A stretch of DNA of 64,000 nt from an uncultured archaeon (lineage in GTDB: Archaea > Iainarchaeota > Iainarchaeia > Iainarchaeales > JAAZKV01), in the NCBI GenBank assembly GCA_964549775.1, contig CAZJVN010000001.1, positions 21,028-85,027 on the forward strand. The letters are read 5' to 3'. Shown here in pieces: positions 3,173 through 59,590 of this stretch. The position numbers and the translations under genes are program-made. The notes beneath the pieces are model-generated. The model worked only from the letters and a program-made list of their open reading frames with translations, did no database searches and was not told the origin of the DNA. Position 1 is the first letter of the stretch. Each line of letters begins with the position of its first letter.

Positions 3173-3391
3173 ATGAAACCAGTTAAGAGTATAAAAGTAG
3201 GATCAGTTGAGGTTGCGGTTTGGGAGAACTCTTCAAAAGAAGGAAACAAGTTCTTTACAACAACTTTGAATAGAAATTATAAAGATAAAGAGGAATGGAA
3301 AAAAACCGATTCTTTAAGAGTGGATGATTTGCCTAAAGCAATTTTGGCTCTTGAAGAGGCTTATCGTTTTTCAGCAATAAAAGAAAGTTAA
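3173..3391 (+). CDS. Small hypothetical protein (72 aa), possibly a PC4/YdbC-like (DUF2128-like) ssDNA-binding fold
   Basis: GGAGGaattgttATG RBS. Sequence ..VEVAVWENSSKEGNKFFTTTLNRNYKDKEEWKKTDSLRVDDLPKAILALEEA has the beta-sheet + C-terminal helix layout recalled from YdbC/PC4-like proteins. Assignment is from memory only. Confidence 0.45.
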   Translation: MKPVKSIKVGSVEVAVWENSSKEGNKFFTTTLNRNYKDKEEWKKTDSLRVDDLPKAILALEEAYRFSAIKES

Positions 3392-4735: not shown

Positions 4736-6850
4736 ATGACTCAAGAAATAAGCGCATTAGTCCTTAAATCAAATAATTTTGAAAAATTTAATCCAATGCA
4801 AGAAAAGTGTTTGAATAAGTTAAATAAAAGTCTTGTTGTTTCAGCACCAACTGCGAGCGGAAAAACTATTGTTGCAGAACTTTTTGTTCTTCAAAGTGTT
4901 TTGATTGAAAAAAAGAAAGTAATTTACACTTGTCCTTTGCGTGCGCTTGCAAGTGAACATTATAAGGATTTTAAAAGAAAATATCCTCAAATTAAATTTT
5001 CTCTTTCTACTGGTGATCTTGATTCTAGTAGTTCTTATTTAAAAAAATTTGATGTAATAATGACTACTTATGAAAAACTTGCAAGTTTACTAAGGCATAA
5101 ATCAGAGTGGTTAAGTGAAGTTGGTTGTATTATTATTGATGAACTTCACGAACTTGATTCTTCGCGTGGACCAGTTCTTGAAATTGCTTTAACTCAATTA
5201 AGAAACAAAAACCCTTCACTAAAAATATTGGGTTTAAGTGCAACTATTCCTAATGCAAAAGAGTTGAGTGAATGGTTAAGTGCAGATTTAGTTGAAAGCG
5301 ATTTTCGTCCAACAAAATTAAAAGAAGGAGTATTTTTTGAAAACGAAATTACTTACCAAAATTTAGAAGTAGAAAATTTTAAAGATGTTGAAGATTTAAT
5401 TAATAATTTAATTAAAGAAAATAAACAAGCGCTTGTTTTTTTAAATTCAAGAAAACGTGCTGAAGGTTTTGCAAAAAAAATAAACAAAATTGTGGCCAAC
5501 AGTTTGAGCGAAAGAGAAATCCAAAAATTAAAAGAAGTTTCAAAAAGAGCATTAAATGTTTTAGAGTCCCCTACTGAACAATGTTCCTCTCTTTCAGAGT
5601 GTATAATGCAAGGGAGTGCCTTTCATCATGCAGGATTATTAAACGAGCAAAGAGAACTTGTTGAAGATAATTTTCGACTTGGACAAATTAAAGTTTTGTG
5701 TTCCACAACAACTCTCTCTGCAGGAATTAATTTGCCAGCAGATTTAGTAATTATTCCAAGTGTTTATCGTTTTGAAAAATTTTCAATGGAATTAATTCCA
5801 GTGAGGGAATATAAACAATGTGCAGGTAGAAGTGGTAGACCAAAATTTTCTAGCGAGGGAAAGAGTGTTATTTTAGCTAGTTCAGAACAACAAAAAGAAC
5901 TCTTAATTGAAAAATACATTAATGGGAGTATTGAAAAAATTGAATCTAAACTTTCAAATATCCCAATTTTACGTACCCACATTTTGGCACTAATCGCAAC
6001 TAATGAAATTTATGATATTAAAAGTATTGAATCCTTTTTTGAAAAAACGCTTTACGCAAAACAGTTTGGGGATTTTTCAGAGTTACTTGAAAAAATAGTT
6101 GAGATCATTTCAGATTTAGAAAAATTTGGTTTTGTTGAAAACAAAAATAACTTTTTTGTTTGTACCCCCTTAGGTAAAAGAGTGAGTGATTTATTTTTAG
6201 ATCCTGAAAGTGCATTTGATTTAATTACTGCATTAAGAAGCAAAAAAACTTTTACAAATATTTCTTACTTATATGCTTGGGTTAATTGTTTTGAATTTTT
6301 TCCACTTTTAAGTGTTCCAAAAAATATTAAACCAATTATTTATGAAGAATTTAGTGAAAGAATGGTGGAACTTCCTTTTAGTGAAGAAAAACTAATTTTA
6401 GAAGAAAATTCGGTTAACAAATATTTTTCTGCATTAATGCTTGAATATTGGATCAAAGAAAAAAAAGAGCAAGAATTATTCAAAGAGTATAATTTAGCTC
6501 CAGGAGTGCTTTTTGGAAAAACTAGAATTATTGAATGGTTATCTTATAGTACAATTGAATTATCAAAAGTTTTAGGTATTGAAAAACACATAATTGTAAG
6601 TAATAAATTGAGTAAGCGAATAAAGTATGGAGTTAAAGAAGAATTATTACAATTAGTTGAATTAAAAGGAGTGGGACGGGTACGTGCGAGGAAATTATTT
6701 AATGCAGGAATAAAAAAACCCACTGAAATCAGAAATAATTTAGCTAAAGTAGAGTCATTGTTAGGAAAAACCGTTTCAGATTCTTTAATTAAACAATTAA
6801 CTTTAAAAAAATCAATTAAAGCTGAATCAACTTTTCAAAAAAGCTTATAA
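4736..6850 (+). CDS. hel308: Ski2-like DNA helicase Hel308/Hjm
   Basis: 704 aa. Walker A APTASGKT, DEAH-type IIDELH, SAT motif, QCAGRSGR motif VI. C-terminal winged-helix and HhH region typical of archaeal Hel308. Confidence 0.85.
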   Translation: MTQEISALVLKSNNFEKFNPMQEKCLNKLNKSLVVSAPTASGKTIVAELFVLQSVLIEKKKVIYTCPLRALASEHYKDFKRKYPQIKFSLSTGDLDSSSSYLKKFDVIMTTYEKLASLLRHKSEWLSEVGCIIIDELHELDSSRGPVLEIALTQLRNKNPSLKILGLSATIPNAKELSEWLSADLVESDFRPTKLKEGVFFENEITYQNLEVENFKDVEDLINNLIKENKQALVFLNSRKRAEGFAKKINKIVANSLSEREIQKLKEVSKRALNVLESPTEQCSSLSECIMQGSAFHHAGLLNEQRELVEDNFRLGQIKVLCSTTTLSAGINLPADLVIIPSVYRFEKFSMELIPVREYKQCAGRSGRPKFSSEGKSVILASSEQQKELLIEKYINGSIEKIESKLSNIPILRTHILALIATNEIYDIKSIESFFEKTLYAKQFGDFSELLEKIVEIISDLEKFGFVENKNNFFVCTPLGKRVSDLFLDPESAFDLITALRSKKTFTNISYLYAWVNCFEFFPLLSVPKNIKPIIYEEFSERMVELPFSEEKLILEENSVNKYFSALMLEYWIKEKKEQELFKEYNLAPGVLFGKTRIIEWLSYSTIELSKVLGIEKHIIVSNKLSKRIKYGVKEELLQLVELKGVGRVRARKLFNAGIKKPTEIRNNLAKVESLLGKTVSDSLIKQLTLKKSIKAESTFQKSL

Positions 6851-6978
6851 ATGACTTAAAACCTATATTTTACGACAATATTTGGATTTTTGGGTAAAAA
6901 AATAAGGTTTTTTGTAATGGGGCAAGAAATTTTTAACAAAAAAATTTTCAAAAAAGCTTATAAATAACTTAAAACCTT
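6832..6978. repeat. Two copies of a 34-bp direct repeat (ttttcaaaaaagcttataaatgacttaaaaccta, 32/34 identical) at 6832-6865 and 6945-6978
   Basis: Read directly. Copy 1 contains the last codons and stop of hel308. Copy 2 lies about 50 bp upstream of the giant gene start. Both carry a TATA-like ttataaat. Confidence 0.6.
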
Positions 6979-6984
6979 AGTTTG

Positions 6985-7030
6985 AAAGAATATAAATAGT
7001 TTTTAGACTTTGTTTTGGTTGGGTTTTTAG
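6985..7030 (+). promoter_or_regulatory. Candidate BRE/TATA promoter (gaaagaaTATAAATAg) for the giant surface-protein operon
   Basis: TATA-like octamer 6991-6998 about 33 bp upstream of ATG 7031, preceded by a purine-rich stretch. Spacing is compatible with a short-leader archaeal transcript. Confidence 0.25.
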
Positions 7031-10000
7031 ATGGTTGGAAATGAGATTTTTCAAAAAATAACCACTTCTATTCAAAATTTTTATTACGCTTTAGAAGACA
7101 AATGGTACAATGTTCTTGACAAAATTGATCCAAAAGTACCAGTATACAAAATAATTGACCCAATTGACAAATTTGTTCCAAGTTTTGTACTATTTTTACT
7201 TTTTTTATTTTTTCTAATCTTACTTGCAGGATATTTAATTAGATTTTCTTCTCCCTACGAAGTAACTTTCACTATTAGTGATGCAAGTAATAACACAAAA
7301 CTTTCAGGAGTACAATTAAGTGGAGCAATTAATGAAAATGAGTTCAAACAAGTAATTACGGACAGTAAAGGAATAGCAACTGTTCAAACAATTGGATCAA
7401 AAAAGAATTTTTATGATATTTTAGCAGCAATCTTTTTTGGAAGTAAAGATCTTTTTATCGCACAGCTTTCAGTAAAAAAAGAAAATTATGTTCCTTGGGA
7501 AAATAAAATTGTTACTTTAGAAGGAAAAACTTATGAAATTGCTTTAAGTAAAGTTCCACAAGAACCTGTAAAATTTAAAGGGGTTGCAGTTGTTGAATTA
7601 TTAGATAAAGATACTCTTCAAAAAATAGTTGATCTTACTGGTTCTTCTTTTATTCAATATGATTGTAAAAACATAAAAATTGCAGGAGCTCCAATAACAG
7701 TTAAAGATGATAGTGACGGAGCAATTGATGGTTCATTTAAACTTGCAAAAGATAATTGTGAATTTATTATAACTAATGCGAGTGCTCCTGGATACGAGTC
7801 TTTAGGAATTTCAGTAAACCTCGACCCTACAAAAGATAAGCACAAAATTTCTTTACAAAAACAATCAGCTGATGAGGGGATTGCTAATGTTTTTGTTTAT
7901 GAATTAAAAGGATCAGAAAAAAAAGCAATTCCCGGGATAAAAGTGTTTTTTAATAAAATTAACACTAATGATTATTCTTTTACTAATAGTTCAGGGGTTG
8001 CACAAAAAACTTTAACTACAGGAGAATATGTAATAACAATTAATGATGAAAATTATTATCCAATAACTCAAACTTCAAACAAAAAAATCATTATTACAAA
8101 AGCCTCTTCTTCTACAATTGAAATTCAATTAACCTTTTTACCCCTAGCTCTAAGAAGATATGTTTACTTTAAAGTAATTGATTCAAACAGTCTTGCAATA
8201 GCGAATGCAAGTGTGTCTTTGATCGAATTACAAAAAGATAAGAATGGAAATTATTTTGGTGCAGATCTCAATTCAAACACAATTCATTACACTCCACTTA
8301 TAACAAATCTAACTGACACTAATGGTTTATTTAGACAACATGGTTTTACTGATACTAACATAAAAGTAATTGCGATTGTTAAAAAAGCTGGGTATTTAAA
8401 TAAAGTATTTTTAGCACAAATAGTAAAATACGATGCAACTTATGAAGTTGTAACTTTAGAAAAATTAGTTCCAGAAAATACTGCTTCTGCAAATATTATT
8501 GTTAAAGAAAAAGATACTAACAAAAGTATTTTTGGAGCAAATGCTTACTTATATTATTCTGCAACAATTGGAGGAGTATTTATAAAAAATATTCCAATAA
8601 CTCAACAAGGAGTAAAAACTGATTATTTAGGGAACGCAAAATACCAATATTTGATTCCTGGAAATTATTCTGCAGGAGCAGATGTAGAAAATAATTATTT
8701 TTCAGGAATTAGTGAAGAAAAATTCATTGATATTAATCAAACAAAAGATTTCAATATATTTGTTAAACTAAATGCAAGTTTGATTTCTTTTAGATTAATT
8801 AATGCTGTTACAAAAAACCCAATAGTTGGAATTATTGAAGTCTACTATTTGAGTGGTTCTTCAAAAGTTCTTATTGAAACTCTAACTACTACAAATAGCG
8901 GATTTGTTAAAAGTAATTTTGCTTTCAAAAAAACTGATAATTTATATTTAGTTGGAAAATCACCAGGGTACGCTAATGGATTTATGTACCATAATGGAAG
9001 TAGTTATCCACTTGCTATTGGCGAAAATAATTTTAGTGTTAAATTGTACCCAAAAAGTGCACTTGATTATAACAATGGAGGTCCTAGTGAAAGGAATACT
9101 TATACCATAGATAATAACCAGCTTTGTTTGAAATCTCCAACAGAAAATAGATGTTTAGACATAACTAACTTAAATGAGAATTATTCTAATGGAATAAAAG
9201 TTGGAAATTTTAGTTGTAATTTACAAACAGATAACTCAATTATTTGCAATAATAATTTGAGGTATTATTATTCTTCAAGAGTGAATATGTTTTTTGATAA
9301 TATTTATTCAACAACTGATAACCATCTTTCAGGATACTCTACTGCAGATTCTTTAGAGCCCGGAAGTTCTTATTCAGCAGTATTTGATGTAGTTGTAGAC
9401 GGAAATGTAAGTTACAGTGAATTATTGTCAATGATTCGACTTGAAGGGGCTGGAAAAATAACAAACATTTTGCCAGACATTTCTCCAAGAACTGGTCAAT
9501 TTGGACACAAATGTGATAACTCTTCACTAGATGGAAACATTAGAACTAGACCTGACAGTTATTATTATCCTACAAGCAGTAGTTGTAATTCTATTGGTGG
9601 AACAGATTCAATAATTGCAAGCATTAAGTGGGCACAAAATCCTTTACCAAAAGGGTCTTATACAGTTAGAGTAAATTTTAAAATAAATGCGAACTCTGAT
9701 GATGAACCATTAAATTTTTATTATCGAGCTAAAGAAAAGAGTCAAAATGGTTCAACTGAAACACTTTTAATGAGTAGACAATTTACTGTTGGAGAAATTT
9801 TAGGAACCGGAATTTATTATAGAATAAATAATAATGGGAAAAATATTATTGTTAAAGAGTCAAGTAATATTAGTTCAAACAATAGATTACTATTTGTTGA
9901 AGACGATGTTAACCCGTTAAGAATTTCTTTAATTAACAGACTTGAAAATTCTCTCTCAAATGCTACACTAACTCTGTATTCTTATTATGGAGATCCTTCT

Positions 10001-12127
10001 TCATTTAATATTTCTTCAAATGGTTCAGGAGATTTATTTTTTGGGTCAGACAAATTGAAAAAAGTTGTTCTTGGAACAAATATTAATTTACCTTCAAAAA
10101 CAAATCAAGAATTTTCTGTTAATGGGTACATTAACAAAAATAGTTCTTCTTGGATGGTTTTAACTCTAACTAGTGGTTCAGCAAGAATTAGTACTGTTTT
10201 TGTAATGGTTACAAGTGAATCAAGTTTATTAGAATTAAAAGATGCTTGCTTTTTAGCAGGAGTAAGTGGACAAGATTTGTACTTAAGATTTGGAACAAAA
10301 TACGGACAAGACAGTATTAGTATCCCAAGTGCAGAAATAAACATTTACAAGAATTGTGATACTGCTCCAAGATCTTTTTCAGAGCAAAAATTAATCCAAT
10401 CAAATACTGGTTCAATTAATACTACTCTTGACGAAAATAAAAGTTATGTTTATGGAAAAGATTGTTTGGAATATAAAATAAATGCTAAAGAGGGAACTTA
10501 TATTTATCCCGAACTTAGTGGAAAAATAATGGCTGGTTCTTGTGGGACTCCTGATCCTGAACTTGCTTGTCTTAGTGTTGATTTGATTTATGAAAATCAA
10601 AATGAAAGTCAAGGATTAATTACAATGGATTGGGACAAGAAAGCAACTATGAGAATTTCAAATCGTTCTTGTTCTGGACCAATAGATGTTGTAATTGAAA
10701 GTGGACTTATTTGTAAAATTGATGGTAAAAATTGTACTGCTCCAACCACAATTAATCAAAAAGCAACAAAAGATTTTGAAATAACTTCAAAGAATGTTAA
10801 TTATATTCCAAGTGAAATGCCAAACTTTAGTGATGTTTTAGGATATTACCCAGTGTATGTTAAAGCTAAATTAACTAATAATCCAAGAAAAGTTTATTCA
10901 ATCGCTAAAACAACAAATATTAGTATCTATAATAGTAAAAGTTGTTTTGCAATTTCAAAAGATTACTTTGATTTCCTTTCTTCAAACGAAGATTCTCCTT
11001 TCGAACTAAAAAATGAATGCCAATACACTTTAATTGGAGATTATTTTGTTCCAAAAGCAAATCTAAGTGCATTTGGTTATGATTTAAATTTAAACATTCC
11101 AATTTACTCAACAGTTCAATTTAAACCTAAACTTTTTATCACTGGTGCACCTTACCGAGTAGAGCAAAGAACTGAAACAGTTTCTTATTGGTTAAATAGC
11201 AAAATTATTGAGGATAGTGAAATTGAATCAGTTACAGTCCCTGGAGAAGATTATGTTAGATATGAAACTTATAATTTTGATTTAACTCAAACTCAAGGAA
11301 AAACTGATAAAATAAAAATAAAATTCAAGGACTTTAATTTTGATATTTACGATTTTGAGGAAGTAACCTCTTCTTTTGATGGAGGCTACCAATATTCAAG
11401 ATTTGCTTATGGGATGGCAATTGACGGAAATATTAAAGTTACTTTCAAGGATGGAAATTCAATTTTTATAAAACCTAGTAAAAATTTTAACATAACTAAT
11501 GCGCCAATTTGTACAAATGTTTCCGCTGAAAACAATGTGGAAAGTTGTAGAATAATTAATTCATTTTTAGACACTACTGAAGACAGGGTTGAAAAAGATA
11601 AAAACTTTGTGAGTGGAGAGTTGATTATCAAATTACCTACAAAGAAAACAATTGATTATATTGATTTTAATATTATTGGTAATCCCATCATGAGTAATTT
11701 AACTGTTAGTTTAAGCACTTTCCAATCAATTGACATGAATATTCCTTATTATGTATTAACAGATACTGATGTAAATTATACTATTGATTTAATCGACAAC
11801 AATAAAGAAATAGCTGCTATTGAAGGAATAGAATACTTAATCAAATCGTTTGATGACATAAACGCTTTTAGAAGCGGAATATTTTCTTCATTACACAATC
11901 CAAAAGTGTACATTATTTCAGGAAATCCTTTAGTTTCTGTTTGGATTGAAGGAGATTTAGTTAAAGCAAAATTCGTTGGACAAGACGTTGCACGATTTAA
12001 TAATGGAAAAATTGACGCTACATTAATTCAAGATTTTGCGCAAGGAAATAGTTTAGGGATAGTTGAAATTACAGATTATGTTTATCAAGTTCCAGGAAAA
12101 ACAATTAGTGGGGTTAATCAAAATTAA
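7031..12127 (+). CDS. Giant (1698 aa) membrane-anchored extracellular protein, probable cell-surface / S-layer-like or adhesin protein
   Basis: About 50-aa N-terminal segment then one hydrophobic helix (FVLFLLFLFFLILLAGYLI). The rest is N/S/T/Y-rich with dozens of N-x-S/T sequons and scattered Cys pairs. No enzymatic motif. Confidence 0.75.
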   Translation: MVGNEIFQKITTSIQNFYYALEDKWYNVLDKIDPKVPVYKIIDPIDKFVPSFVLFLLFLFFLILLAGYLIRFSSPYEVTFTISDASNNTKLSGVQLSGAINENEFKQVITDSKGIATVQTIGSKKNFYDILAAIFFGSKDLFIAQLSVKKENYVPWENKIVTLEGKTYEIALSKVPQEPVKFKGVAVVELLDKDTLQKIVDLTGSSFIQYDCKNIKIAGAPITVKDDSDGAIDGSFKLAKDNCEFIITNASAPGYESLGISVNLDPTKDKHKISLQKQSADEGIANVFVYELKGSEKKAIPGIKVFFNKINTNDYSFTNSSGVAQKTLTTGEYVITINDENYYPITQTSNKKIIITKASSSTIEIQLTFLPLALRRYVYFKVIDSNSLAIANASVSLIELQKDKNGNYFGADLNSNTIHYTPLITNLTDTNGLFRQHGFTDTNIKVIAIVKKAGYLNKVFLAQIVKYDATYEVVTLEKLVPENTASANIIVKEKDTNKSIFGANAYLYYSATIGGVFIKNIPITQQGVKTDYLGNAKYQYLIPGNYSAGADVENNYFSGISEEKFIDINQTKDFNIFVKLNASLISFRLINAVTKNPIVGIIEVYYLSGSSKVLIETLTTTNSGFVKSNFAFKKTDNLYLVGKSPGYANGFMYHNGSSYPLAIGENNFSVKLYPKSALDYNNGGPSERNTYTIDNNQLCLKSPTENRCLDITNLNENYSNGIKVGNFSCNLQTDNSIICNNNLRYYYSSRVNMFFDNIYSTTDNHLSGYSTADSLEPGSSYSAVFDVVVDGNVSYSELLSMIRLEGAGKITNILPDISPRTGQFGHKCDNSSLDGNIRTRPDSYYYPTSSSCNSIGGTDSIIASIKWAQNPLPKGSYTVRVNFKINANSDDEPLNFYYRAKEKSQNGSTETLLMSRQFTVGEILGTGIYYRINNNGKNIIVKESSNISSNNRLLFVEDDVNPLRISLINRLENSLSNATLTLYSYYGDPSSFNISSNGSGDLFFGSDKLKKVVLGTNINLPSKTNQEFSVNGYINKNSSSWMVLTLTSGSARISTVFVMVTSESSLLELKDACFLAGVSGQDLYLRFGTKYGQDSISIPSAEINIYKNCDTAPRSFSEQKLIQSNTGSINTTLDENKSYVYGKDCLEYKINAKEGTYIYPELSGKIMAGSCGTPDPELACLSVDLIYENQNESQGLITMDWDKKATMRISNRSCSGPIDVVIESGLICKIDGKNCTAPTTINQKATKDFEITSKNVNYIPSEMPNFSDVLGYYPVYVKAKLTNNPRKVYSIAKTTNISIYNSKSCFAISKDYFDFLSSNEDSPFELKNECQYTLIGDYFVPKANLSAFGYDLNLNIPIYSTVQFKPKLFITGAPYRVEQRTETVSYWLNSKIIEDSEIESVTVPGEDYVRYETYNFDLTQTQGKTDKIKIKFKDFNFDIYDFEEVTSSFDGGYQYSRFAYGMAIDGNIKVTFKDGNSIFIKPSKNFNITNAPICTNVSAENNVESCRIINSFLDTTEDRVEKDKNFVSGELIIKLPTKKTIDYIDFNIIGNPIMSNLTVSLSTFQSIDMNIPYYVLTDTDVNYTIDLIDNNKEIAAIEGIEYLIKSFDDINAFRSGIFSSLHNPKVYIISGNPLVSVWIEGDLVKAKFVGQDVARFNNGKIDATLIQDFAQGNSLGIVEITDYVYQVPGKTISGVNQN

Positions 12128-12190
12128 TTAAAAAAAGCATGATTAAATAGACATTAAGTGATATATGTTAGTTATTGTTTTGGTGAAAGA

Positions 12191-13858
12191 ATGTTAAAAA
12201 AGTATATTGTTTTGTTGTTAGCAATTCTGCTAATCTGCCCAGTAATATTTTCGCAAGACAATAATAACACTTACTGGGATGGATTTATTAAAATCCATTT
12301 AGATAAACCTGAATTTGATTTAAATGAAAACATTACTGGAACTCTAACTGTAAACAATTTAGAAAATTACCCCCTACTTGGAGGAAAAGTAATTTTAAAT
12401 ATTGCTCAAGGGGAATACAGTTATCCTTCAGAATTTAATAAAAGCAATATTGTTTATGAAAGCACTATTGATTCAATTTGGAGTTTACCAATTTATTCCA
12501 ATGTAATAAATTTTTCTTTACCAAGTCAAGCAAGTGGGGAATATAGAGTGGACGCTTATTTTGAAGTAGGAAAATCAGCTCTTTCTGGATCAAACAATAC
12601 TTTACTAGGTGCAGTTTGGAAAAACTTTTCAGTAAAAGGAACTGATAAAAAAAGAGTGATAATTGATAGAGAAAAAACTTTTTTTGGAGAATATAATGTG
12701 GGGCAAAGAGGCTTTTCTGTTAATAGTGAAGAAAGCGTATCGGGAAAAGTTGTTGTAAAAAATGAATCTAGTGAAAGAAAAACTAATTTAGAGTTATTAA
12801 TTAGTTTTTGTGATTGGGATGTGAGTTATTGTAATACTGAAACAAAAGCAAATAAGTTTACTATTGATTCTATTGAAGCAAATGAAGAAAAAGAAATACA
12901 AGTTGATCTAATTGCTCCAAGTAAAGCTTCACAATATGAAATTAACTTGAAAATTACTAGTGGGGAGTTTATTGAATCAATTTATAAAAATCAAGTAAAC
13001 GTTAATGGAGAAACTGCGAAAATAAAAAAGATATTTATGACAGGACTTGAAAATAATGATTATTCATTTAATGCTCTAATTATTGGAAATACTACTCAAA
13101 CAAATTCGACATTAAATAATTTCATAACAAAATTAGTGTTATTTAGAGAAAATTCAATAGTTGAAGAGTTGACAGAAAATATTGGGACAATGAGTAATGA
13201 TGAATTGATTAAAAAGAATTTCAAAATTAATTCTAGGGACTTTGATAAAGTTTGTTTAACAATAGAAAAAGGAACTGAATTAATAGATGAAGAATGTTTT
13301 AATGTTAATTTAATTGAGTTAACAAAAGCTCATGAAATTAGATTTCCAAATTTTGTTAATGTAGTTTACAATTATGATGAAAAAAATGAAACATTATCAA
13401 TTACTCTAAAGAAAAATGTGATTAATTCAAGAGTTAGAATTATTTCAAAAAGCGAAGTATTATTTGAAGAAGAAGTTTTAGAACAATCAAACATTTATTC
13501 AAAAAGTATTTCTTTACCAAAAGTGACTGCTCAACTTGTAGTTGATGATTGGGATGCAAAAAGACAACAAGTATTTGATTTAGTACTAGACGAAACAGTT
13601 GATGTTAGAGAAACTAGTGAAGTCACTTTGGAAACTAATCAATATATTTGTCAAGAAAACCTTTGTACTGAAGGATTTACTTGTTCAGGAAAAAGTTATG
13701 AAGCAATTGGTGGGATTTGTTGTTTAAGTGAATGTGTTCCTGAGTCAAAAATAGGAAATTCAGAGCTAGTACTACCTTTAATATTTTTTATTGCAATAAT
13801 TATTTTAATAATAGCAGTGTTTGTTATAAGATCAACAATTAAGCGGGTGAAAAAATGA
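12191..13858 (+). CDS. Secreted protein (about 555 aa) with N-terminal signal peptide and C-terminal TM anchor plus basic tail
   Basis: Likely start ATG 12191 (MLKKYIVLLLAILLICPVIFSQ, signal peptide). C-terminus has a Cys-rich patch CQENLCTEGFTCSG..GGICCLSECVP, then LVLPLIFFIAIIILIIAVFVI-RSTIKRVKK. 30-nt gap after the previous gene. Confidence 0.7.
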   Translation: MLKKYIVLLLAILLICPVIFSQDNNNTYWDGFIKIHLDKPEFDLNENITGTLTVNNLENYPLLGGKVILNIAQGEYSYPSEFNKSNIVYESTIDSIWSLPIYSNVINFSLPSQASGEYRVDAYFEVGKSALSGSNNTLLGAVWKNFSVKGTDKKRVIIDREKTFFGEYNVGQRGFSVNSEESVSGKVVVKNESSERKTNLELLISFCDWDVSYCNTETKANKFTIDSIEANEEKEIQVDLIAPSKASQYEINLKITSGEFIESIYKNQVNVNGETAKIKKIFMTGLENNDYSFNALIIGNTTQTNSTLNNFITKLVLFRENSIVEELTENIGTMSNDELIKKNFKINSRDFDKVCLTIEKGTELIDEECFNVNLIELTKAHEIRFPNFVNVVYNYDEKNETLSITLKKNVINSRVRIISKSEVLFEEEVLEQSNIYSKSISLPKVTAQLVVDDWDAKRQQVFDLVLDETVDVRETSEVTLETNQYICQENLCTEGFTCSGKSYEAIGGICCLSECVPESKIGNSELVLPLIFFIAIIILIIAVFVIRSTIKRVKK

Positions 13859-16560
13859 ATTACAAAAAAATAACTTTAATATTTTTCACTTTAATTATTT
13901 TTATTTCTTTAATAAGTTTTTCTCTGGCCTGGTATGCTACAGGTTGTGCAGGTTCTGGTGGGTGTAGAAATGTTTGTAACACTGGAGGAAATGGAAATAG
14001 AAATTGTTGTTCAGGAAGGAATTGGGTTTATTGTGAAGATCATGATGATGGATGTGGAAGAAATGATAACAAATGGATGTATAATATTCTTCAAACAAAC
14101 TCTCCATTATGTGGAGGTGGAGGAACTCCTGACACCGGACCAGTTTGCCCAGGAACTGGCGGTTGTGTTAATTTGGGTATTGTAAATGTAGACCCGGTTA
14201 GGGTAACTACTGAACAATGCCTCATCTCAGAAAATATGACTTTGAATGGAACCACATATTCTTTATTTGGAACTCCTGGATTTAGTTTAACTTTAACTGG
14301 ATTTGATTATTTTAAATGGGACCCTTCAGGAAACACTAAAACATTTTATATGTTAAATATAACTTCAACTACTGATTCAACAAAAAAAGTTTGGAAAACT
14401 AATGTTGCAAATAACGGACCATCAGTAAATTCAACAAAAAGAGCATGCACCACTGACGGTGCTGGATGTACTGTTGCCGGCCATTCATTAGGACAAGGAA
14501 CTTTCCCAAGAATAACCTATGTTTTCACAGACAATAATATAGGAGGTTTTAATTATAATTTAAGTAGAATTGCTAACTCTATACCAGAAACATTTAATTC
14601 CTGGGTGGGACCGGCCGGAATTGTTTCTGAAAAAGAATCGAATGTTTACATTGGCCTTCCTTCATTAGTAATTATGGGACCAACTGATGTTAATACAGGT
14701 TTTTTTGAAAAAAGTGGACAATATGAAAAGAAATTATTTTTCAACTTAATAAACACCTCTCCGCTAGACCTAAATTTAGAAAATTATAGACTAATTTGTA
14801 ATGGGGTCGGAGTAAGTTGTAGTATGGATCCAAATTATGCCGGATTTCAAATACCTAAATTAAATGGAGATTTAATTTTAACTGGAACTTTAAGAGTAGA
14901 CAAAAATAAGTTACCTACTACAGTTGGATTTGTTCTTGATGTTAATTATACTGTTCCTGCATTAAAAGATAAAGATTGTGGGGATTATTATACAGGAAAA
15001 ATTAGTACCTCTCTAAAACCAACTTTATTAAAATTGGGTTTAATGGATAAACAAAAATTCCAAGTCGGATTAATTTCAGAAAGTGATTCAACAAATTGTG
15101 TTGGAGAAAACGGAATGATAGGACAAACAGGAGAAGATTTTGTCCCAAGAGTAAATGTTGGATTTGGAGGAACCATTGATTCAAACAAAAAATTAATTTC
15201 TATTAATGAATGTGATACTTATGATATTAATGGAAGTCCTAATCCAAATTGGGTTTATTGTTCAAGAAAAGAATTTTTAGTTGAACTTGCAAGAAAAATT
15301 GACATTGCTTGGACAATACAAAAAACAATTAATGATTACAAACAATCGCCAAGTACTAGTGATGATTTACTAATAGAAGATTTAGAACTAGAAAAACAAA
15401 AATACTTATCGTTTGAAACAAATATTAGAAAACAATCTTTGTCAAAAGAAAATGTTTTAGCTTCAATAACTAATTTAAATTCAATACTTAATTCGCTAAC
15501 TGTTCAAACAGGTTTAGAAAATTTTGGAACACAAGATAAAATCAAACAAGCTACAAGATTAACAAATTTGTTTTCAAATGTTAATTTTACCTCTCTTGGC
15601 GGAGAGTATTTTGGAGAAATGCCTACTGGGACTTACAAAGTCAATATAAAATTGAGAGACATGAACATTAATACTCCTGATTTGTTTGAAACTGACGATA
15701 AATTGAATCCAAAGATTTCAATAAGTGTAGACTTTAGTACTTTACCAGTTGCACCAGAACTTAATTGGTTCTTTTATGATTATGCTGATGAAGATTTTAG
15801 CACTTTAACTAGCAAACCTCAATTAAACAATTTTAATAGTGTAAATATTATGAATAGGGGAAAATTATTTTCAATTAATCATGATCCAAATAACACCTCA
15901 CCAAGATTTGATTATAATTTTTACCCAAATTATGCTGTCCCTCTTTTTGTTAGATTAAAAACTGACACAAACGGAGATATGAACAATACTTTTTCTACAA
16001 ACATTACCGAACCTATTTATAATTTTAGTTATTGGACTGGATTTGCAAGTAGTTCTGAAGATGGATGTGAAAATATTGCTTCAGAGGAATTAACCACAAA
16101 TTCTGCTTTAATGCCTTATAGAGAAAGTGATTCTGTGAAGACTTTTGGTTCAAACGACTTTTATTTTCCTCAATTTGAGAACAACAAACCAAATAGTACA
16201 ATTTATTTAGAAACTATTTTGTTCTGGCCAAGCACAACAAATGATACAAAAACCATTAATTCACCTTTTGAAATTTACACCAACAATAATTTAAATAATT
16301 CAAAAAACAATGTGATTGTAAATAATATTGTTGAAACTGGAGAAAATAGTTTTTACATAAACAATATTGAGAGAATGTTTGATGCAATTAAAGATGAAAA
16401 GGTTTGTGTATACCAAGGAGTTAGTGCTGTTACAACTAATTGGACTTTGTTTTGGAATACAAAAAAGATTTATGATTCTATTAGTGACCTTAAGATAAAT
16501 GTAATTGAAGAAAATGATGATGCTACTATTTGTGAATCAAGAGAAGCACTTGGTGGATAA
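13855..16560 (+). CDS. Large (901 aa) secreted/surface protein with Cys/Gly-rich N-terminal module
   Basis: Start overlaps previous stop (ATGA). N-terminal TM/signal then CAGSGGCRNVCNTGGNGNRNCCSGRNWVYCEDHDDGCGRN..CGGGGTPDTGPVCPGTGGC, followed by an N/T/S-rich body with many N-x-S/T sequons. Confidence 0.7.
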   Translation: MNYKKITLIFFTLIIFISLISFSLAWYATGCAGSGGCRNVCNTGGNGNRNCCSGRNWVYCEDHDDGCGRNDNKWMYNILQTNSPLCGGGGTPDTGPVCPGTGGCVNLGIVNVDPVRVTTEQCLISENMTLNGTTYSLFGTPGFSLTLTGFDYFKWDPSGNTKTFYMLNITSTTDSTKKVWKTNVANNGPSVNSTKRACTTDGAGCTVAGHSLGQGTFPRITYVFTDNNIGGFNYNLSRIANSIPETFNSWVGPAGIVSEKESNVYIGLPSLVIMGPTDVNTGFFEKSGQYEKKLFFNLINTSPLDLNLENYRLICNGVGVSCSMDPNYAGFQIPKLNGDLILTGTLRVDKNKLPTTVGFVLDVNYTVPALKDKDCGDYYTGKISTSLKPTLLKLGLMDKQKFQVGLISESDSTNCVGENGMIGQTGEDFVPRVNVGFGGTIDSNKKLISINECDTYDINGSPNPNWVYCSRKEFLVELARKIDIAWTIQKTINDYKQSPSTSDDLLIEDLELEKQKYLSFETNIRKQSLSKENVLASITNLNSILNSLTVQTGLENFGTQDKIKQATRLTNLFSNVNFTSLGGEYFGEMPTGTYKVNIKLRDMNINTPDLFETDDKLNPKISISVDFSTLPVAPELNWFFYDYADEDFSTLTSKPQLNNFNSVNIMNRGKLFSINHDPNNTSPRFDYNFYPNYAVPLFVRLKTDTNGDMNNTFSTNITEPIYNFSYWTGFASSSEDGCENIASEELTTNSALMPYRESDSVKTFGSNDFYFPQFENNKPNSTIYLETILFWPSTTNDTKTINSPFEIYTNNNLNNSKNNVIVNNIVETGENSFYINNIERMFDAIKDEKVCVYQGVSAVTTNWTLFWNTKKIYDSISDLKINVIEENDDATICESREALGG

Positions 16561-16566: not shown

Positions 16567-17364
16567 TTAAACAAAAAGCGCTAAGTAAATTAAAAATAGT
16601 GCTAGAACTATTATAAGTAAAATTATTGTTTTTGTTGAAAAGAAACTTAAATCAATTTTTATTTTTGGAATAATTCTTTTAGATTCATTACCTTCTTCAT
16701 TTTTATCTTTTTTTGTAATAGATTCTTTTGTATCTGAAAAGAATTCTTTAGTATAAACTAACCAATTTTTTGGTTTTTTTAAATCGCTAAGAGTGCTTTT
16801 TGTTAATTCCACAATTCCTTTTTCTCTACTAGGAATTTTTTCTAACCCTTCAATTTTTTCATCAACTGCATTTATTTTTAAGTCAAATTCACTTTCGCCC
16901 ATCTTTATTTTTGTTAAATAAAAACCCAAAAGTACTTTTCTTACACTAGTAATTATTACGTTTTGTTTTGGAACATCAAAATAGTCTGCAGTTTTTAGTT
17001 GTATAACTTCGTGTTGTTGTTTTCTGTCAATATTATTCCATTTTTCTTCAAATTTTTCTTTAGGTATTGTTTGAATTGATTTTTTCCAAGTGTATTTAAT
17101 TAAATCTGTAAGTTTTTCTTCGATTTTTATTTTGTGTGCATTTATTACAAGTACTCCATCATGAGTTTCGTTTATTACTCCTTTAGCACTATTTTTGTGT
17201 TCAGTATAATAGTGATAATTGTATAAAAGATAAGGCACTAGAATTAGTGTTGGTTTTTCTATTTCAAACTCGTGCCAATCTTTTTTTTCTAATGCTTCTT
17301 TTATTTTTTGATTTATTTTAGGTATTGAAGCATTTAAGGGTAACAATGGATTACTTAAGTACAT
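16567..17364 (-). CDS. Hypothetical tail-anchored membrane protein (265 aa), co-directional with and immediately downstream of SepF
   Basis: Soluble K/E-rich body and a single C-terminal TM (TIILLIIVLALFLIYLALFV) at the extreme C-terminus. 20-nt gap to SepF. Confidence 0.5.
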   Translation of the reverse strand: MYLSNPLLPLNASIPKINQKIKEALEKKDWHEFEIEKPTLILVPYLLYNYHYYTEHKNSAKGVINETHDGVLVINAHKIKIEEKLTDLIKYTWKKSIQTIPKEKFEEKWNNIDRKQQHEVIQLKTADYFDVPKQNVIITSVRKVLLGFYLTKIKMGESEFDLKINAVDEKIEGLEKIPSREKGIVELTKSTLSDLKKPKNWLVYTKEFFSDTKESITKKDKNEEGNESKRIIPKIKIDLSFFSTKTIILLIIVLALFLIYLALFV

Positions 17365-17383: not shown

Positions 17384-17713
17384 TTATTTTTTCTTAATTA
17401 TTTTTACTTTTGCAGGAGTAACTAAAAGTCTTTCTTGAGAGATTGCTGCCATGTCTCCGTCAATCTTTTTTATTTCTCCTTTTATTATTGAAATTAATTC
17501 TCTTAATTTAGTTGCGTTTCTCTTTTTCAAATCTGCTATATTTACTAAAACAATGTTTCCTGCTTTTGCTTCGTTTATTACTGCAGAAGCATCTGCTTCA
17601 ACAATTAAGTCCATTGGTTTAACAAATGCATCAGCATTTTCGTAAGATTCCTCTTCAACTTGATCCATATTATTTAATACGTCTTCTAAGTCAACTGACT
17701 CAGGTTTTGCCAT
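17384..17713 (-). CDS. sepF: Cell division protein SepF homolog (DUF552)
   Basis: Core ..DLIVEADASAVINEAKAGNIVLVNIADLKKRNATKLRELISIIKGEIKKIDGDMAAISQERLLVTP matches the SepF domain pattern (..KaGn.V.vNl..l......R.iDfl.G...algG.i.kI.e..fLftP). ATG at 17713 is preferred over the listed GTG at 17743. Confidence 0.7.
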   Translation of the reverse strand: MAKPESVDLEDVLNNMDQVEEESYENADAFVKPMDLIVEADASAVINEAKAGNIVLVNIADLKKRNATKLRELISIIKGEIKKIDGDMAAISQERLLVTPAKVKIIKKK

Positions 17714-17743
17714 TACATTACTAAAAAAACCCAAAATAACCAC

Positions 17744-18020
17744 CCCGCTTTAAAAGCGACTCTAATACATCTCCTTATACAAAACATATAAAAAGCTCTC
17801 GTTGTTAAGTTTGGATTTCAAACTCTAAAGGTATTAATCAAAGTAAATACACATATTAGTGGAAGTTTTAGTGATTGACTAGCACTTCCATTAATAATTA
17901 TTTGTTTTAAGAATTAATTTATTGTAAATTGTTTATTTTGTTGAAAATTATTTTAATAAAAATTATTTTAGAAAAAATTATTTATTATAAATTATTTTTT
18001 TATGTTGGGGGCGAAGAATT
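17744..18020. other. Candidate chromosomal replication origin (oriC): ORB-like inverted repeat + extreme-AT unwinding element directly upstream of orc1/cdc6
   Basis: 17860-17890 tGGAAGT-N17-ACTTCCa inverted repeat (resembles the GTGGAA core of archaeal mini-ORBs). 17808-17824 AGTTTG-gattt-CAAACT palindrome. 17891-18000 is about 110 nt with about 6% GC, containing four imperfect tandem about 14-nt A-tract units (aaaattattttag..). GGGGG at 18006-18010. Confidence 0.35.
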
Positions 18021-29854: not shown

Positions 29855-30364
29855 TCACCAAGGTACTTTTTTCAATTTTAATTTATACGCAATAATGTTA
29901 GTGGCAGAGTGCATAAAAATTGTAATAATTAGTAATGCTAAAATTACTTCAAGTTCGGGAAATCTTACAAATGAACTCAAAATTAGTCCGCCTAAAATGA
30001 AATCCCATTGATCTGCAACAGCCCAATGTGACCCTCTTTCGAGACCAATTCTTCGTTTTAAGAAACTCTTAACTATGTCTCCAAGCATTGCTCCAACTGA
30101 TAAAAAAACTATGAAAGTAAAATATTGATTTATTGATTGAGATAATGGAACTAAAAAATAAATAAGGGTTCCTGCTGAAGCCCCTACTAAAATTCCACTA
30201 AAAGTACCTAAAATTGTTTTCCCATCGCCAAAAATTCTTTGCCCAAACAACTTTTTTCCAAAATCAAGCGGAACGGTTCCGTGCAACATTATGGGCGCAG
30301 CATTAGCAAAATACATTGGAACTGCATAAATTAGAAACATAAAAAACAAATTAATTAAGTCCAA
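29855..30364 (-). CDS. carS: CDP-archaeol synthase CarS (CDP-2,3-bis-O-geranylgeranyl-sn-glycerol synthase)
   Basis: 169 aa, 5 TMs. ..FGDGKTILGTFSGILVGA.. and ..AVADQWDFILGGL.. match the CarS/DUF46 family pattern. Confidence 0.65.
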   Translation of the reverse strand: MDLINLFFMFLIYAVPMYFANAAPIMLHGTVPLDFGKKLFGQRIFGDGKTILGTFSGILVGASAGTLIYFLVPLSQSINQYFTFIVFLSVGAMLGDIVKSFLKRRIGLERGSHWAVADQWDFILGGLILSSFVRFPELEVILALLIITIFMHSATNIIAYKLKLKKVPW

Positions 30365-48291: not shown

Positions 48292-49092
48292 TTATAACTT
48301 AATTTTTGTAGAAATTAATTCTTTTCCAAGTAGTGCTTTTTCTAAATTTCCTTTTGTAAATAAATTAAATATTTGTGCTTCGCTTCCATTTAGTTGTTCT
48401 GCTAATTTTTCTAGTTTTCCTTTCATCCCACCAGTTACATCAACTGAATTTGATTCGCTCGCCATTTTTATTACTTCATTAAAATTTTCTTTATTAATTT
48501 CTTTTATTAACTTTGCAGCAGGATTAATTTTTGGGTCAGCAGTATAAATTCCATTCACATCAGTCCCTAATAGTATTTTGTCAGGTTTCATTAATTTTGT
48601 TATTTGTGCAATTGCTGTATCTCCACTCATTACACTCCATTTTAGTGTTCTGTCTTTTACCATTATTCCTGTTGTTATTGGAATCTCTCCTCCACGCAAT
48701 GCTTTTTCATACTCTTCTATTTCATAAGTTATTACTTTTTTGTTATCTTGTTTACAAACCCAATAACCTGGTATGTGTCTTGTTTTTAGTTTTTGTTTTT
48801 CAAGTGTTTCTATTACTTGGTCAGCAACATAATCGCAATCTTTAATTGTTTTTTCAGTCCCTTCTTCTTGCTTTTTTGTTTTTATTCCATCATTTAAGTC
48901 ATATTCTTTTACATTTGTGTGACCAAATGGACCAACCCCACAAATAATAATTAAATTAAAATCTCTTTCTTTTAGCGCGAATGCAATTTCTTTTGCTGCA
49001 TCATCTATCACAGCAATATTCATTTCAAATTTGTTGTCAGCTTTTTTGGTTATTGAAGAACCACCAAGTTTTAATAAAATTAATTCTTTCAT
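48292..49092 (-). CDS. ipk: Isopentenyl phosphate kinase (IPK; amino-acid-kinase fold)
   Basis: 266 aa. ..LLKLGGSSITKK.. and ..ICGVGPFGH.. match IPK. Confidence 0.8.
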   Translation of the reverse strand: MKELILLKLGGSSITKKADNKFEMNIAVIDDAAKEIAFALKERDFNLIIICGVGPFGHTNVKEYDLNDGIKTKKQEEGTEKTIKDCDYVADQVIETLEKQKLKTRHIPGYWVCKQDNKKVITYEIEEYEKALRGGEIPITTGIMVKDRTLKWSVMSGDTAIAQITKLMKPDKILLGTDVNGIYTADPKINPAAKLIKEINKENFNEVIKMASESNSVDVTGGMKGKLEKLAEQLNGSEAQIFNLFTKGNLEKALLGKELISTKIKL

Positions 49093-49122
49093 CCACCCAC
49101 CAAATTTAATTTAAAAAAATAG

Positions 49123-49515
49123 TTATTCTAAAATTATTTTTGCGCTAGTCGCATTAACAATTACTTTTTGTCCGTTTTTTATTTTTGAAATATCAATTTT
49201 GTCTACACATGGAATTTCCGAAATAATTGCCCCCACTGCAACTATTGTTTCGCATTCTTTATTTATTAATGCGATTGGTGCTGTTCCTTGTTTTTTCATT
49301 CTGTAAAGCGCGTAACTTCCAACAGTTGAACCTTTTCCTTGTGGGAAAACTAAAATTTTTCCACTAATACTTTTTCCTTCAAGTTCGTGTCCTTTTTCTG
49401 TAACTACTCCGTTCGCAGGATCTACTCCTCCAAAGAAACTTATTCCTTGTGTGGTGACAAGTGCTTCCCCTTCTGCATTCCCTTTACAAATTTTTCTTCC
49501 AATCATTTCAACCAT
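49123..49515 (-). CDS. AcnX-type small subunit (DUF126 swivel domain), inferred phosphomevalonate dehydratase small subunit
   Basis: About 130 aa. G-rich core ..GGVDPANGVV..GKILVFPQGKGSTVGSYALYRM.. matches DUF126. Adjacent to the DUF521 gene. Confidence 0.7.
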   Translation of the reverse strand: MVEMIGRKICKGNAEGEALVTTQGISFFGGVDPANGVVTEKGHELEGKSISGKILVFPQGKGSTVGSYALYRMKKQGTAPIALINKECETIVAVGAIISEIPCVDKIDISKIKNGQKVIVNATSAKIILE

Positions 49516-49553
49516 AAAATTCACTTTTTTTATTTACCAAAAATTAATTTAAT

Positions 49554-50729: not shown

Positions 50730-50774
50730 TTTTTCACCAATTCAATTTTTAAAAACCATCATTAAATTTATTTT

Positions 50775-52049: not shown

Positions 52050-52071
52050 AAAAATCACCTTTAAACTAACA

Positions 52072-52629
52072 TTAAATCTTGTTCCATCTATTGAATTTGT
52101 TGTTAGAAACTCCTAATAAATCTAATGCTTTTCCAACAATAAAATCTTCAACATCTTCTATTTTTTTTGGTTTGTGATAAAACGCTGGACTCAAAGGAAA
52201 AATTATTGCGCCATATAAGGATAGTTTCCATAAATTTTCAAGTACAGGCCCACTTAGTGGAGTTTCTCTTACCCCAATTATTAATTTATTTCTTGTTTTG
52301 AGCATATTGTCTGAACATCTAGTAATTAGATTATTTGTGTGTGCGTGAAGTATTTCTGAAACTGTTTTTATTGATGCAGGAATAATTATCATTCCATCTA
52401 CTAAAAAGGAACTAGAGGATATGCTTGAGGATAAATCATCATTGGAATAATTTTTTGTTGCAAGTTTTTTTATTTGAGAAATTTTTGTTTTTGTTTCTTC
52501 TTTAATTACTTCATTAGCCCATTCGCTAATAATTAAGTGTGTCTCAATTTTTTTTTGTTTTAATTCCTTTAAAAGAGCCACTGCATAATTTGCTCCACTT
52601 GCTCCAGTTATTGCAATAATTATTTTCAT
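52072..52629 (-). CDS. ubiX: Flavin prenyltransferase UbiX (prenyl-FMN synthase)
   Basis: 185 aa. MKIIIAITGASGANYAVALLKEL.. flavoprotein N-terminus. Confidence 0.85.
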   Translation of the reverse strand: MKIIIAITGASGANYAVALLKELKQKKIETHLIISEWANEVIKEETKTKISQIKKLATKNYSNDDLSSSISSSSFLVDGMIIIPASIKTVSEILHAHTNNLITRCSDNMLKTRNKLIIGVRETPLSGPVLENLWKLSLYGAIIFPLSPAFYHKPKKIEDVEDFIVGKALDLLGVSNNKFNRWNKI

Positions 52630-52639
52630 AAAAATAATT

Positions 52640-53584: not shown

Positions 53585-53689
53585 AATTTGTTACCTACTA
53601 ATATTATTGAATTTAATGTTTATAAAAGTGCCTTTGAAAAAATTAATTAAAGGCAAAATAATTTTGAAATAACTTTAAAATTGATTTTT

Positions 53690-54094: not shown

Positions 54095-54131
54095 TTCACC
54101 ATTTTAATTTTTTCAAAATTTAAAATCAATC

Positions 54132-54335: not shown

Positions 54336-54376
54336 AAAATCACCCTTTATGAAAATTTTGTCTTCATAAAAATAAT

Positions 54377-55806: not shown

Positions 55807-55810
55807 ATCC

Positions 55811-56860: not shown

Positions 56861-56888
56861 TCTCTTTCGTTTTATAAGTCTAACTTTT

Positions 56889-58187: not shown

Positions 58188-58221
58188 AAAAATTTAAAAT
58201 TAAAAACTTCTTTTATAAAAT

Positions 58222-59559: not shown

Positions 59560-59590
59560 TAATAATCCCTTTTAGTTTTAAAATTTTTAA

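Follow-up and report, generated by a model that had tools for sequence, protein, structure and literature searches.

A conserved three-gene locus of uncultured Iainarchaeota, predicted to encode a fast-evolving cell-surface complex

Gene organization of the A-B-C locus

Here, we describe three co-oriented genes, designated A, B and C, on a 64,000-nucleotide stretch of DNA (hereafter the window; contig CAZJVN010000001.1 of assembly GCA_964549775.1) from an uncultured archaeon of the Iainarchaeota. Gene A (7031-12127, + strand) is an open reading frame (ORF) of 1698 aa, whose product combines a conserved N-terminal motif, one transmembrane helix and an all-beta ectodomain of ~1620 aa. Gene B (12191-13858, +) codes for 555 aa when read from its ATG, with a Sec-type signal peptide, an ectodomain, a six-Cys module, a C-terminal transmembrane helix and a basic tail, and gene C (13855-16560, +) is an ORF of 901 aa for a signal peptide, a variable Cys/Gly insert, immunoglobulin (Ig)-like domains and a conserved C-terminal module. 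Together, the three products sum to 3154 aa, and their genes occupy 14.9% of the window. We consider it probable, at roughly 60%, that A-B-C encodes a membrane-tethered, non-enzymatic and fast-evolving cell-surface complex for contact or adhesion.

The three genes form an operon-like unit. In this respect, the initial annotation of the locus, made from the sequence alone, held in its details: three successive + strand ORFs of the lengths given there, a share of ~15% of the window, a 4-nt ATGA overlap at the B/C junction and a gap of 30 nt between A and B. The latter distance applies to GTG 12158, the mechanical ORF start of B, from which the protein would be 566 aa long. ATG 12191, which leaves a gap of 63 nt, is the likelier start, since the N-termini of the homologues coincide with it and a Shine-Dalgarno-like GGTGA motif lies 6 nt upstream. 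The start codon of C is likewise preceded at 6 nt by GGGTGA, which holds the same GGTGA motif as found ahead of B, and the ATGA overlap together with these two motifs argues for translational coupling. The frames of A, B and C are free of internal stops, the odds of an open 1698-codon frame being ~1e-63 by simple arithmetic (stops make up ~8% of random codons at 28.7% GC); together with the conservation of the three families, this excludes that the genes are pseudogenes.

Upstream of A, a TATA-box-like ATATAAATA can be read at 6990-6998 (+), 32-40 nt ahead of the start codon, and represents a candidate archaeal operon promoter, by analogy with archaeal promoters that have a TATA box and a transcription factor B recognition element (BRE). 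Besides, a repeat search revealed a 36-nt direct repeat in the upstream intergenic region (6829-6864 and 6942-6977, +), whose copies are 94% identical and lie 113 nt apart. Each copy holds a TATA-like AAGCTTATAAAT, and the first overlaps the end of the Hel308 gene. It might represent a promoter duplication or, alternatively, a site bound by a regulator.

Pfam, NCBIfam, PHROGs and PADLOC returned no family above threshold for any of the three proteins, the only sub-threshold matches being CarboxypepD_reg, Big_1 and PEGA in A, and the earlier statement that none of the three has a recognisable enzyme motif was borne out by Pfam and NCBIfam, in which no enzyme family was matched. When the three family alignments and a broad-family alignment were run as profiles against PDB sequences, nothing was matched except a PKD domain in the variable region of distant members. 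Foldseek searches gave generic beta-sandwich strings only, both for the C model (PDB and BFVD) and for the model of the C-terminal half of A (PDB), and no fusogen for C. The initial annotation had suggested checking for Ig-like or beta-sandwich structure, and the models of C and of the C-terminal half of A are indeed dominated by Ig-like beta-sandwiches. N-terminal hydrophobic helices are present in all three proteins by hydropathy, as had been proposed, and Cys positions are conserved in all three family alignments. These signal or anchor helices, the conserved Cys and the all-beta Ig-like folds jointly point to a location at the cell surface, and the description of the locus as an operon-like unit whose products are non-enzymatic surface proteins, either secreted or anchored in the membrane, is supported. 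The same does not apply to the heavy N-glycosylation suggested from an abundance of sequons: N-x-S/T occurs 33, 10 and 18 times in A, B and C, composition alone predicts 24, 7 and 17, and the slight excess leaves the counts mostly a matter of N/S/T-rich, AT-rich composition, with no indication of heavy glycosylation beyond it.

Protein A: a conserved N-terminal motif and a beta-sandwich ectodomain

Protein A has one hydrophobic helix by hydropathy, at aa 44-75, and no C-terminal one. The region aa 17-75 (7079-7255, +), delimited by invariant alignment columns and hydropathy, consists of a conserved motif followed by this anchor helix. In the family of the window protein (11 full-length homologues, 28-42% identity), the motif reads YY.LEDKWY..LDKI..K.PVYKIIDPIDK.VPSF. 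Across 44 proteins, whose ectodomains are at most ~30% identical, its consensus is Yy..EDkyY..LDkin.k.PvYk.iDPIDkvvPSF. Neither Pfam nor NCBIfam has a match for the N-terminal motif, and a literature search with the motif strings turned up nothing relevant.

Extended or specialised N-terminal signals are a feature of very large secreted bacterial proteins, namely ESPR in autotransporters and TpsA proteins and the YSIRK-G/S type. The motif of A resembles these in its position just before a hydrophobic helix, in being far better conserved than the passenger, and in its restriction to very large surface proteins, yet it bears no sequence relationship to them and is undescribed in Pfam and NCBIfam. 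By analogy, it might serve to target or insert very large substrates.

Downstream of the helix, aa 77-679 (7259-9067, +) probably comprise repeated transthyretin/prealbumin-like beta-sandwiches (CarboxypepD_reg, Big_1 and PEGA-like), seen as weak Pfam matches in the window protein and as significant ones in homologues. Specifically, window A scores 18.8 bits against PF13620 (CarboxypepD_reg; gathering cut-off 32.3), and CarboxypepD_reg domains are found in 9 of its 11 homologues at E <= 0.01 (best E 1.5e-9) and in distant relatives, too. This region would form a stalk. The remainder, aa 680-1698 (9068-12124, +), holds 18 of the 20 Cys of A and is all-beta in an AlphaFold2 model of the final 1019 aa (m00d3cc0b626a), which is built almost purely of strands (predicted local distance difference test, pLDDT, 70; predicted template-modelling score, pTM, 0.37) and suggests a chain of further beta-sandwich domains. 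Its closest folds in PDB, by Foldseek, are multi-Ig strings such as the PrgB Ig domains and the macroglobulin (MG) domains of alpha-2-macroglobulin, C5 and CD109, at a template-modelling (TM) score of ~0.1.

The matches of this half to bacterial and human alpha-2-macroglobulin, CD109 and complement C5, along with faint Pfam matches to bMG3 and MG4 in relatives, raise the idea of A as an alpha-2-macroglobulin-like protease trap or another host-defence protein made of MG domains. We rejected this idea as highly improbable, since the thioester motif C[GLA]EQ occurs in none of A, B and C and the likeness, with its TM score of ~0.1, is limited to single beta-sandwich domains. Moreover, no TED, A2M or bait-region family was matched, and PADLOC gave no match. 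Bacterial multi-Ig adhesins (the Ig-like region of PrgB, MSCRAMM/SdrD-type B repeats, SpaA-type prealbumin-like domains) give the closest structural and Pfam resemblances and share with A the strings of CarboxypepD_reg/SpaA/SdrD_B-like sandwiches and a stalk-plus-tip logic, albeit with a similarity at the domain level only (TM score ~0.1). In addition, such adhesins use LPXTG and sortase, whereas A would be anchored by an N-terminal transmembrane helix and its conserved motif, in an archaeon without a cell wall.

Protein B: a predicted type-I membrane protein

The hydropathy profile of B shows a signal-like helix at aa 1-24 and a second helix at ~520-553, followed by the basic tail RSTIKRVKK. 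Its ectodomain has two conserved Cys pairs, C207/C214 (CDW...FC) and C355/C369, and ends in a juxtamembrane six-Cys module at aa 487-515 (13649-13735, +; C-x4-C-x5-C-x11-CC-x3-C), all six Cys of which are invariant in the family alignment (15 homologues, 35-43% identity). The same Cys framework, with somewhat different spacings, recurs in distant B-like proteins from two loci introduced below (L029 and L030). Hydropathy and alignment further delimit the segment aa 529-555 (13775-13855, +), with an invariant Pro, the string P-L-I-F, the transmembrane helix and the RSTIKRVKK tail. By this layout, B is a predicted type-I membrane protein, and the terminal Cys patch, helix and basic tail noted in the initial annotation are real and, as the alignment now adds, kept throughout the family.

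The invariant P-L-I-F, helix and basic tail resemble the tripartite layout of archaeosortase substrates (PGF-CTERM and related sorting signals) in arrangement only: no NCBIfam CTERM model was matched at E <= 1, neither A nor C has a C-terminal helix, and the exosortase/archaeosortase family PF09721 had no match among 48 window proteins scanned, which left out several smaller ORFs. With regard to class-II fusogens and archaeal fusexins (Fsx1, HAP2-like), B was compared at the sequence level, where a B profile run against PDB chain sequences found no match. B as a derived fragment of a giant protein was dropped from consideration, since hhalign comparisons of B with A and of B with C revealed no relationship.

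Protein C: a variable insert and a conserved C-terminal module

Protein C starts with a signal-like helix (aa 3-31, by hydropathy), has 18 homologues and was modelled with AlphaFold2 at pLDDT 75 (mda12f4af4cf0). The helix is followed by the Cys/Gly-rich stretch aa 29-125 (13939-14229, +), which the initial annotation had singled out as a possible new binding or metal-coordinating domain with ~16 Cys. The strings quoted for it do occur, at C aa 31 and aa 86, and a direct count over its 97 aa gives 11 Cys, and not ~16, with 19 Gly and 12 Asn. A conserved domain of this kind, forming the functional centre of the operon, would draw some credit from this density of Cys and Gly, from the motif GC-x3-C..G.NGNR.CC shared within a subclade, and from a C-x5-C-x3-C-x9-CC-x7-C framework that recalls the invariant juxtamembrane module of B. 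Against it, the motif is recognisable only in that small subclade (the window protein, P0002, P0003 and P0005), and the stretch is missing in 9 of the 17 full-length proteins of the 18-member family alignment, varies in length and sequence and aligns poorly among the remaining carriers, lies outside the module common to the wider family of C, and is modelled at pLDDT <50 over most of its length. It also has a single His, so that a typical metal-site pattern is lacking. We regard a new conserved domain here as very unlikely and read the stretch as a putative lineage-specific, variable N-terminal insert, probably disulfide-bonded. Hypervariation of the insert by a diversity-generating retroelement (DGR) or another repeat-driven process was likewise rejected, as the window contains no template-like repeat.

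The same C-C-C-CC-C framework flanks the B/C junction on both sides, in B aa 487-515 (13649-13735) and in C aa 31-60 (13945-14034). This could reflect duplication or pairing, and both Cys regions would lie near the membrane if the N-terminal helix of C stays uncleaved.

Beyond the insert, aa 116-394 (to ~400; 14200-15036, +) form two to three Ig-like beta-sandwich domains according to the secondary structure of the model (pLDDT 75-90), and a Foldseek search of PDB with the C model retrieved CfaE, RbmA, Fab and other folds with Ig-like domains in tandem. The conserved part of the protein, here termed the C-module, spans ~500 aa (aa 395-901; 15037-16557, +) and is defined by invariant alignment columns. 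Three parts can be distinguished: a region of motifs, namely C.GE.GMIGQTGE..PR.N, ECD and NWVYCS..EF, then a bundle of helices at aa 471-575, and finally a beta-rich C-terminal domain with the motifs DWFFY, FSYWTGFASS..GCE, LPYR.PD and WTLFWN. No Pfam, NCBIfam or PDB sequence match was obtained for the C-module. Its invariants across the broad family, six Cys plus Gly, Pro, Trp, Tyr, one Asp and one Asn, suggest a scaffold or binding type of pattern rather than a catalytic one. Distant members combine the module with PKD, FlgD_ig, Laminin_G_3, RCC1, CBM96 and H-lectin domains, and these fusions, together with the non-catalytic invariants, point to a binding-type family.

Conservation and divergence of the triplet

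Close homologues of A, B and C stem solely from metagenome-assembled genomes (MAGs) labelled uncultured 'archaeon', Diapherotrites, Iainarchaeum or 'ainarchaeum', which supports a DPANN-type archaeon as the source of the window. In GTDB species genomes, a pattern scan with the C alignment yielded 24 loci, all from Iainarchaeota-type MAGs including Cand. Forterrea, for which gene order was established by tblastn. Every locus of sufficient length shows the order NTP-transferase, Hel308, A, B, C, a 265-aa gene (-), SepF (-) and Orc1 (+). In one relative (L001; GCA_035355675.1, DAOQRN010000001.1, 3271-22052), the whole cassette is tandemly duplicated within the same flanks, with products of 1640/559/898 aa and 1673/556/834 aa.

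L029 (GCA_964402015.1) and L030 (GCA_974426465.1), two archaea that are more distantly related and have a GC content of ~40%, carry A-, B- and C-like genes in the same order with overlapping junctions, in neighbourhoods entirely unlike the Iainarchaeota context. The predicted products measure 1464 and 1221 aa (A-like), 582 and 573 aa (B-like) and 789 and 1428 aa (C-like) in L029 and L030, respectively, and the B-like proteins match the B profile at E 1e-85 and 1e-98. We take the retention of the triplet in different contexts as the strongest evidence for a joint function of the three products, and A-B-C is a conserved module. An IS200/605-type pair (Cas12f1-like TnpB and Y1 transposase) occupies 11686-12997 of L029, ~2.5 kb downstream of the distant cassette.

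In sequence, the module diverges far faster than its neighbours. Across the same loci, the median identity to the window is 30% for A, 36% for B and 30% for C, vs 64% for Hel308, 68% for SepF and 77% for Orc1. Even for the nearest genome (L005), A, B and C reach 42%, 43% and 39%, vs 82% for Hel308, 90% for Orc1 and 88% for SepF. At the nucleotide level, identity is 78-82% along the flanks and falls to short patches of 65-75% between ~7.07 and ~16.56 kb. This pattern is that expected of an exposed surface locus, strongly selected or recombining, in a fixed position. The sharp drop in similarity makes the locus a likely target of virus- or partner-driven selection and should be useful for strain typing in metagenomes.

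A divergent island inside a conserved frame could also hint at a mobile or virus-derived cassette, e.g. fusogen-like or receptor-binding proteins of an integrated element. The layout of B, with its signal peptide, Cys-containing and putatively beta-rich ectodomain and C-terminal transmembrane helix, is in general terms that of a class-II-fusogen-like type-I protein, and the contexts differ in L029 and L030, the TnpB gene of L029 being 2.5 kb away. Yet the cassette occupies the same position in 24 species genomes, between core genes of replication and division, its GC content and that at third codon positions (GC3) are like those of its neighbours, no integrase, tRNA or flanking repeats were found, PHROGs gave no matches, and the fold search of C against BFVD retrieved generic beta-sandwiches only. 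On account of this synteny, composition and set of negative results, a mobile or viral origin was rejected as a most improbable explanation.

Single-chain relatives

An exhaustive search of representative clusters with a profile of the C alignment returned 297 clusters at E <= 1e-3. About 50 of these are full-length C-type proteins; the others share the C-module, which in most cases forms the very end of proteins that are 800-2900 aa long. Among the best 150 C relatives, 28 are proteins of 2170-2890 aa that carry the A profile N-terminally and the C profile C-terminally. Conversely, two distant matches of A, P0033 (2453 aa) and P0034 (2516 aa), possess C motifs near their C-terminus. With hidden Markov models, P0033 aligns to the A profile over aa 2-787 (E 9e-42) and to the C profile over aa 1753-2427 (E 2.5e-36). 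P0128 is collinear, too: the last ~50 positions of the A profile fall on aa 1435-1479 and the C-module begins at aa 1814, the ~330 aa in between corresponding in size to the Ig region of C. Since A and C are a single chain in other archaea, they most likely make up one working unit in the organism studied here. Measured against these relatives of 2.2-2.9 k aa, the label of giant surface proteins given in the initial annotation is generous for A with its 1698 aa.

Wherever A and C are split, B stands between them. At the fused loci L027 and L028, 2-3 paralogous giants (2381-2778 aa, five in all) are encoded in tandem, and no B-like ORF was found within 10 kb of the fused giants at either of them. 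At both (L027 1-19122, L028 294-27229), the giants are followed by a run of 5-7 genes for small (55-150 aa) multi-transmembrane proteins without a Pfam family, which may be a conserved accessory set.

A putative surface complex for contact or adhesion

Combining these observations, we propose the following working model. A would be held N-in by its single N-terminal helix behind the ~35-aa conserved motif and would project a long stalk of roughly 15 beta-sandwich domains, a number estimated from its length and the partial model. C would be exported through its own signal peptide and dock to A, thereby rebuilding the distal part of the giant protein, so that A and C most likely assemble into a two-chain equivalent of the fused form. 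B, anchored by its C-terminal helix and presumably made in step with C through translational coupling, might be an adaptor or second tether that retains the split-off C part on the cell. Contact is the most likely role of the exposed complex, which may attach the cell to surfaces or to other cells, or scaffold the envelope above the surface (S)-layer, under diversifying pressure, and which is probably also a virus target. Gene structure, export and anchor signals, all-beta folds without enzyme signatures, conservation of the triplet, A-C fusion in other archaea, the restriction of B to split loci (in a small sample) and fast divergence are observations, whereas we infer the physical assembly of A, B and C, the tethering role of B and the contact function.

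Several observations sit less easily with this proposal. A transmembrane-like hydrophobic segment occurs at the A|C junction in ~7 of the 28 fused proteins, and their topology may thus exceed that of a simple stalk. The association of B with the split state only, as it appears from our data, draws on the small sample of two fused loci. In addition, A, B and C of the window are without a recognised binding domain, and a single-copy, syntenic and phylum-wide locus would fit a housekeeping envelope role equally well.

The operon might instead encode the S-layer itself, with A and/or C as lattice protein and B as the anchoring partner, in the manner of SlaA and SlaB of Sulfolobales. There, too, a large secreted beta-rich protein stands beside a ~500-aa partner with a signal peptide and a C-terminal transmembrane anchor, which compares with the ~555-aa B, and both proteins evolve fast and make up a two-gene arrangement tied to the envelope. 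The single-copy locus, syntenic throughout the phylum and near Orc1, its very fast divergence, typical of S-layer genes, and the beta-sandwich building blocks, which are common in archaeal S-layer proteins (bioRxiv 10.1101/2024.05.28.596244), would all be in line with this explanation. However, no S-layer model in Pfam or NCBIfam matched A, B or C at E <= 1. A has a transmembrane anchor of its own, the third gene C has no counterpart in the SlaA/SlaB pair, the fused form occurs elsewhere in tandem arrays of 2-3 paralogues, and a C-module joined to lectin, PKD and LamG modules would suit an adhesin better than a lattice. Homology to SlaA or SlaB was not detected for A, B or C in Pfam, NCBIfam or PDB profile searches, and the Foldseek results for C and the C-terminal half of A are generic Ig folds. 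Furthermore, a published AlphaFold survey assigns another S-layer protein to Iainarchaeota, A0A2G9N319, predicted as a 1039-aa protein of p6 symmetry in an MSTP-like class common to DPANN phyla (bioRxiv 10.1101/2024.05.28.596244). Regarding that class (Methanococcales/DPANN-type; S_layer_N/S_layer_C, DUF1608/MSTP beta-sandwich), A, B and C had no match in Pfam or NCBIfam at E <= 1, and A0A2G9N319 is set apart from them by description. Taken together, A-B-C is probably not the main S-layer, and we rate the S-layer explanation as unlikely.

Returning to the proposed contact or adhesion complex, its closest known kind is found elsewhere among DPANN archaea, as giant surface proteins rich in Ig-like domains such as the SPEARE proteins of nanohaloarchaea. 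SVXNc_0300 and BNXNv_0298 are single chains of 8.9-9.4 k aa that include a VirB4/TraG-like ATPase domain on the cytoplasmic side, and a secretion ATPase is encoded next to them (PMC10266531). Shared features are the DPANN background, a Sec signal or anchor, surface-exposed strings of Ig-like domains, a proposed function in cell contact, and variation between otherwise collinear genomes (PMC10266531). By contrast, the locus described here has three genes of 0.55-1.7 k aa, the two systems being compared by description and not by sequence. No ATPase domain was found in A, B or C (Pfam, NCBIfam), and the neighbours are Hel308, the 265-aa tail-anchored protein and SepF.

On present evidence, the locus represents an uncharacterised variant of multi-Ig-domain surface proteins and not a new kind of biology. 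A farther-reaching view, which we put forward only tentatively and consider rather improbable, is that A-B-C and its single-chain relatives of 2.2-2.9 k aa are an undescribed surface apparatus of several uncultured, mostly DPANN-type lineages and their principal contact device. It would be defined by two new domain families, the N-terminal anchor motif YY.LEDKYY..LDKI..PVYK.IDPID..VPSF, acting as a dedicated signal for targeting or insertion of very large substrates, and the ~500-aa C-terminal module, and B would be a tether that evolved, or was retained, only where the giant was split. Little is known of how the DPANN envelope is built and how these archaea make contact with other cells, because almost none of them has been cultured, and the locus offers a concrete, phylum-wide and easily recognised gene set. 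Both the N-terminal motif and the C-module could enter domain databases, with a gain in annotation for hundreds of 'hypothetical' giant archaeal proteins.

Organism and genomic context

The window is AT-rich (~29% GC) and has the content of an ordinary chromosome, including TatC, SecD/SecF, CDP-archaeol synthase, DnaK, DnaJ, GrpE, PFOR, PolD, Orc1/Cdc6, SepF and a mevalonate cluster. In GC and GC3, the three genes do not differ from their neighbours, and neither tRNAs nor Rfam matches nor mobile-element-like repeats were found in the window.

The archaeal-type mevalonate cluster (48292-63316, -) comprises thiolase, HMG-CoA synthase, HMG-CoA reductase, a GHMP kinase, AcnX (phosphomevalonate dehydratase type), a UbiD-like decarboxylase, an IPK of the amino-acid-kinase fold, an FMN-dependent IDI and a polyprenyl synthase, and looks complete from its gene content. 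Along with the CDP-archaeol synthase (29855-30364), it suggests an autonomy in lipid synthesis of a kind uncommon in DPANN, which speaks against a strict dependence on a host. The initial annotation had called giant surface proteins a hallmark of small-celled, host-associated archaea. For the organism studied here, host association is uncertain in view of the complete-looking mevalonate and lipid genes and of a review that considers Cand. Iainarchaeum possibly capable of independent life (PMC6349945).

Directly next to gene C, on the opposite strand, lie the gene for the 265-aa protein (16567-17364, -) and, immediately upstream of the latter, SepF (17384-17743, -; PF04472, E 1.8e-11). The 265-aa protein has no Pfam family and a single C-terminal transmembrane helix in a tail-anchored layout, and possibly serves the SepF/FtsZ division machinery as a membrane partner specific to this lineage. 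The pair adjoins Orc1/Cdc6 in essentially all Iainarchaeota loci. Between SepF and Orc1/Cdc6, an AT-rich intergenic region (17744-18020) contains short overlapping repeats (AAAATTATTTTA...), especially at 17932-17982, with the PolD genes just downstream, and may be a replication origin region. Finally, a 72-aa ORF at 3173-3391 (+), in an otherwise ORF-poor stretch, shares ~79% nucleotide identity with L005 and L001.

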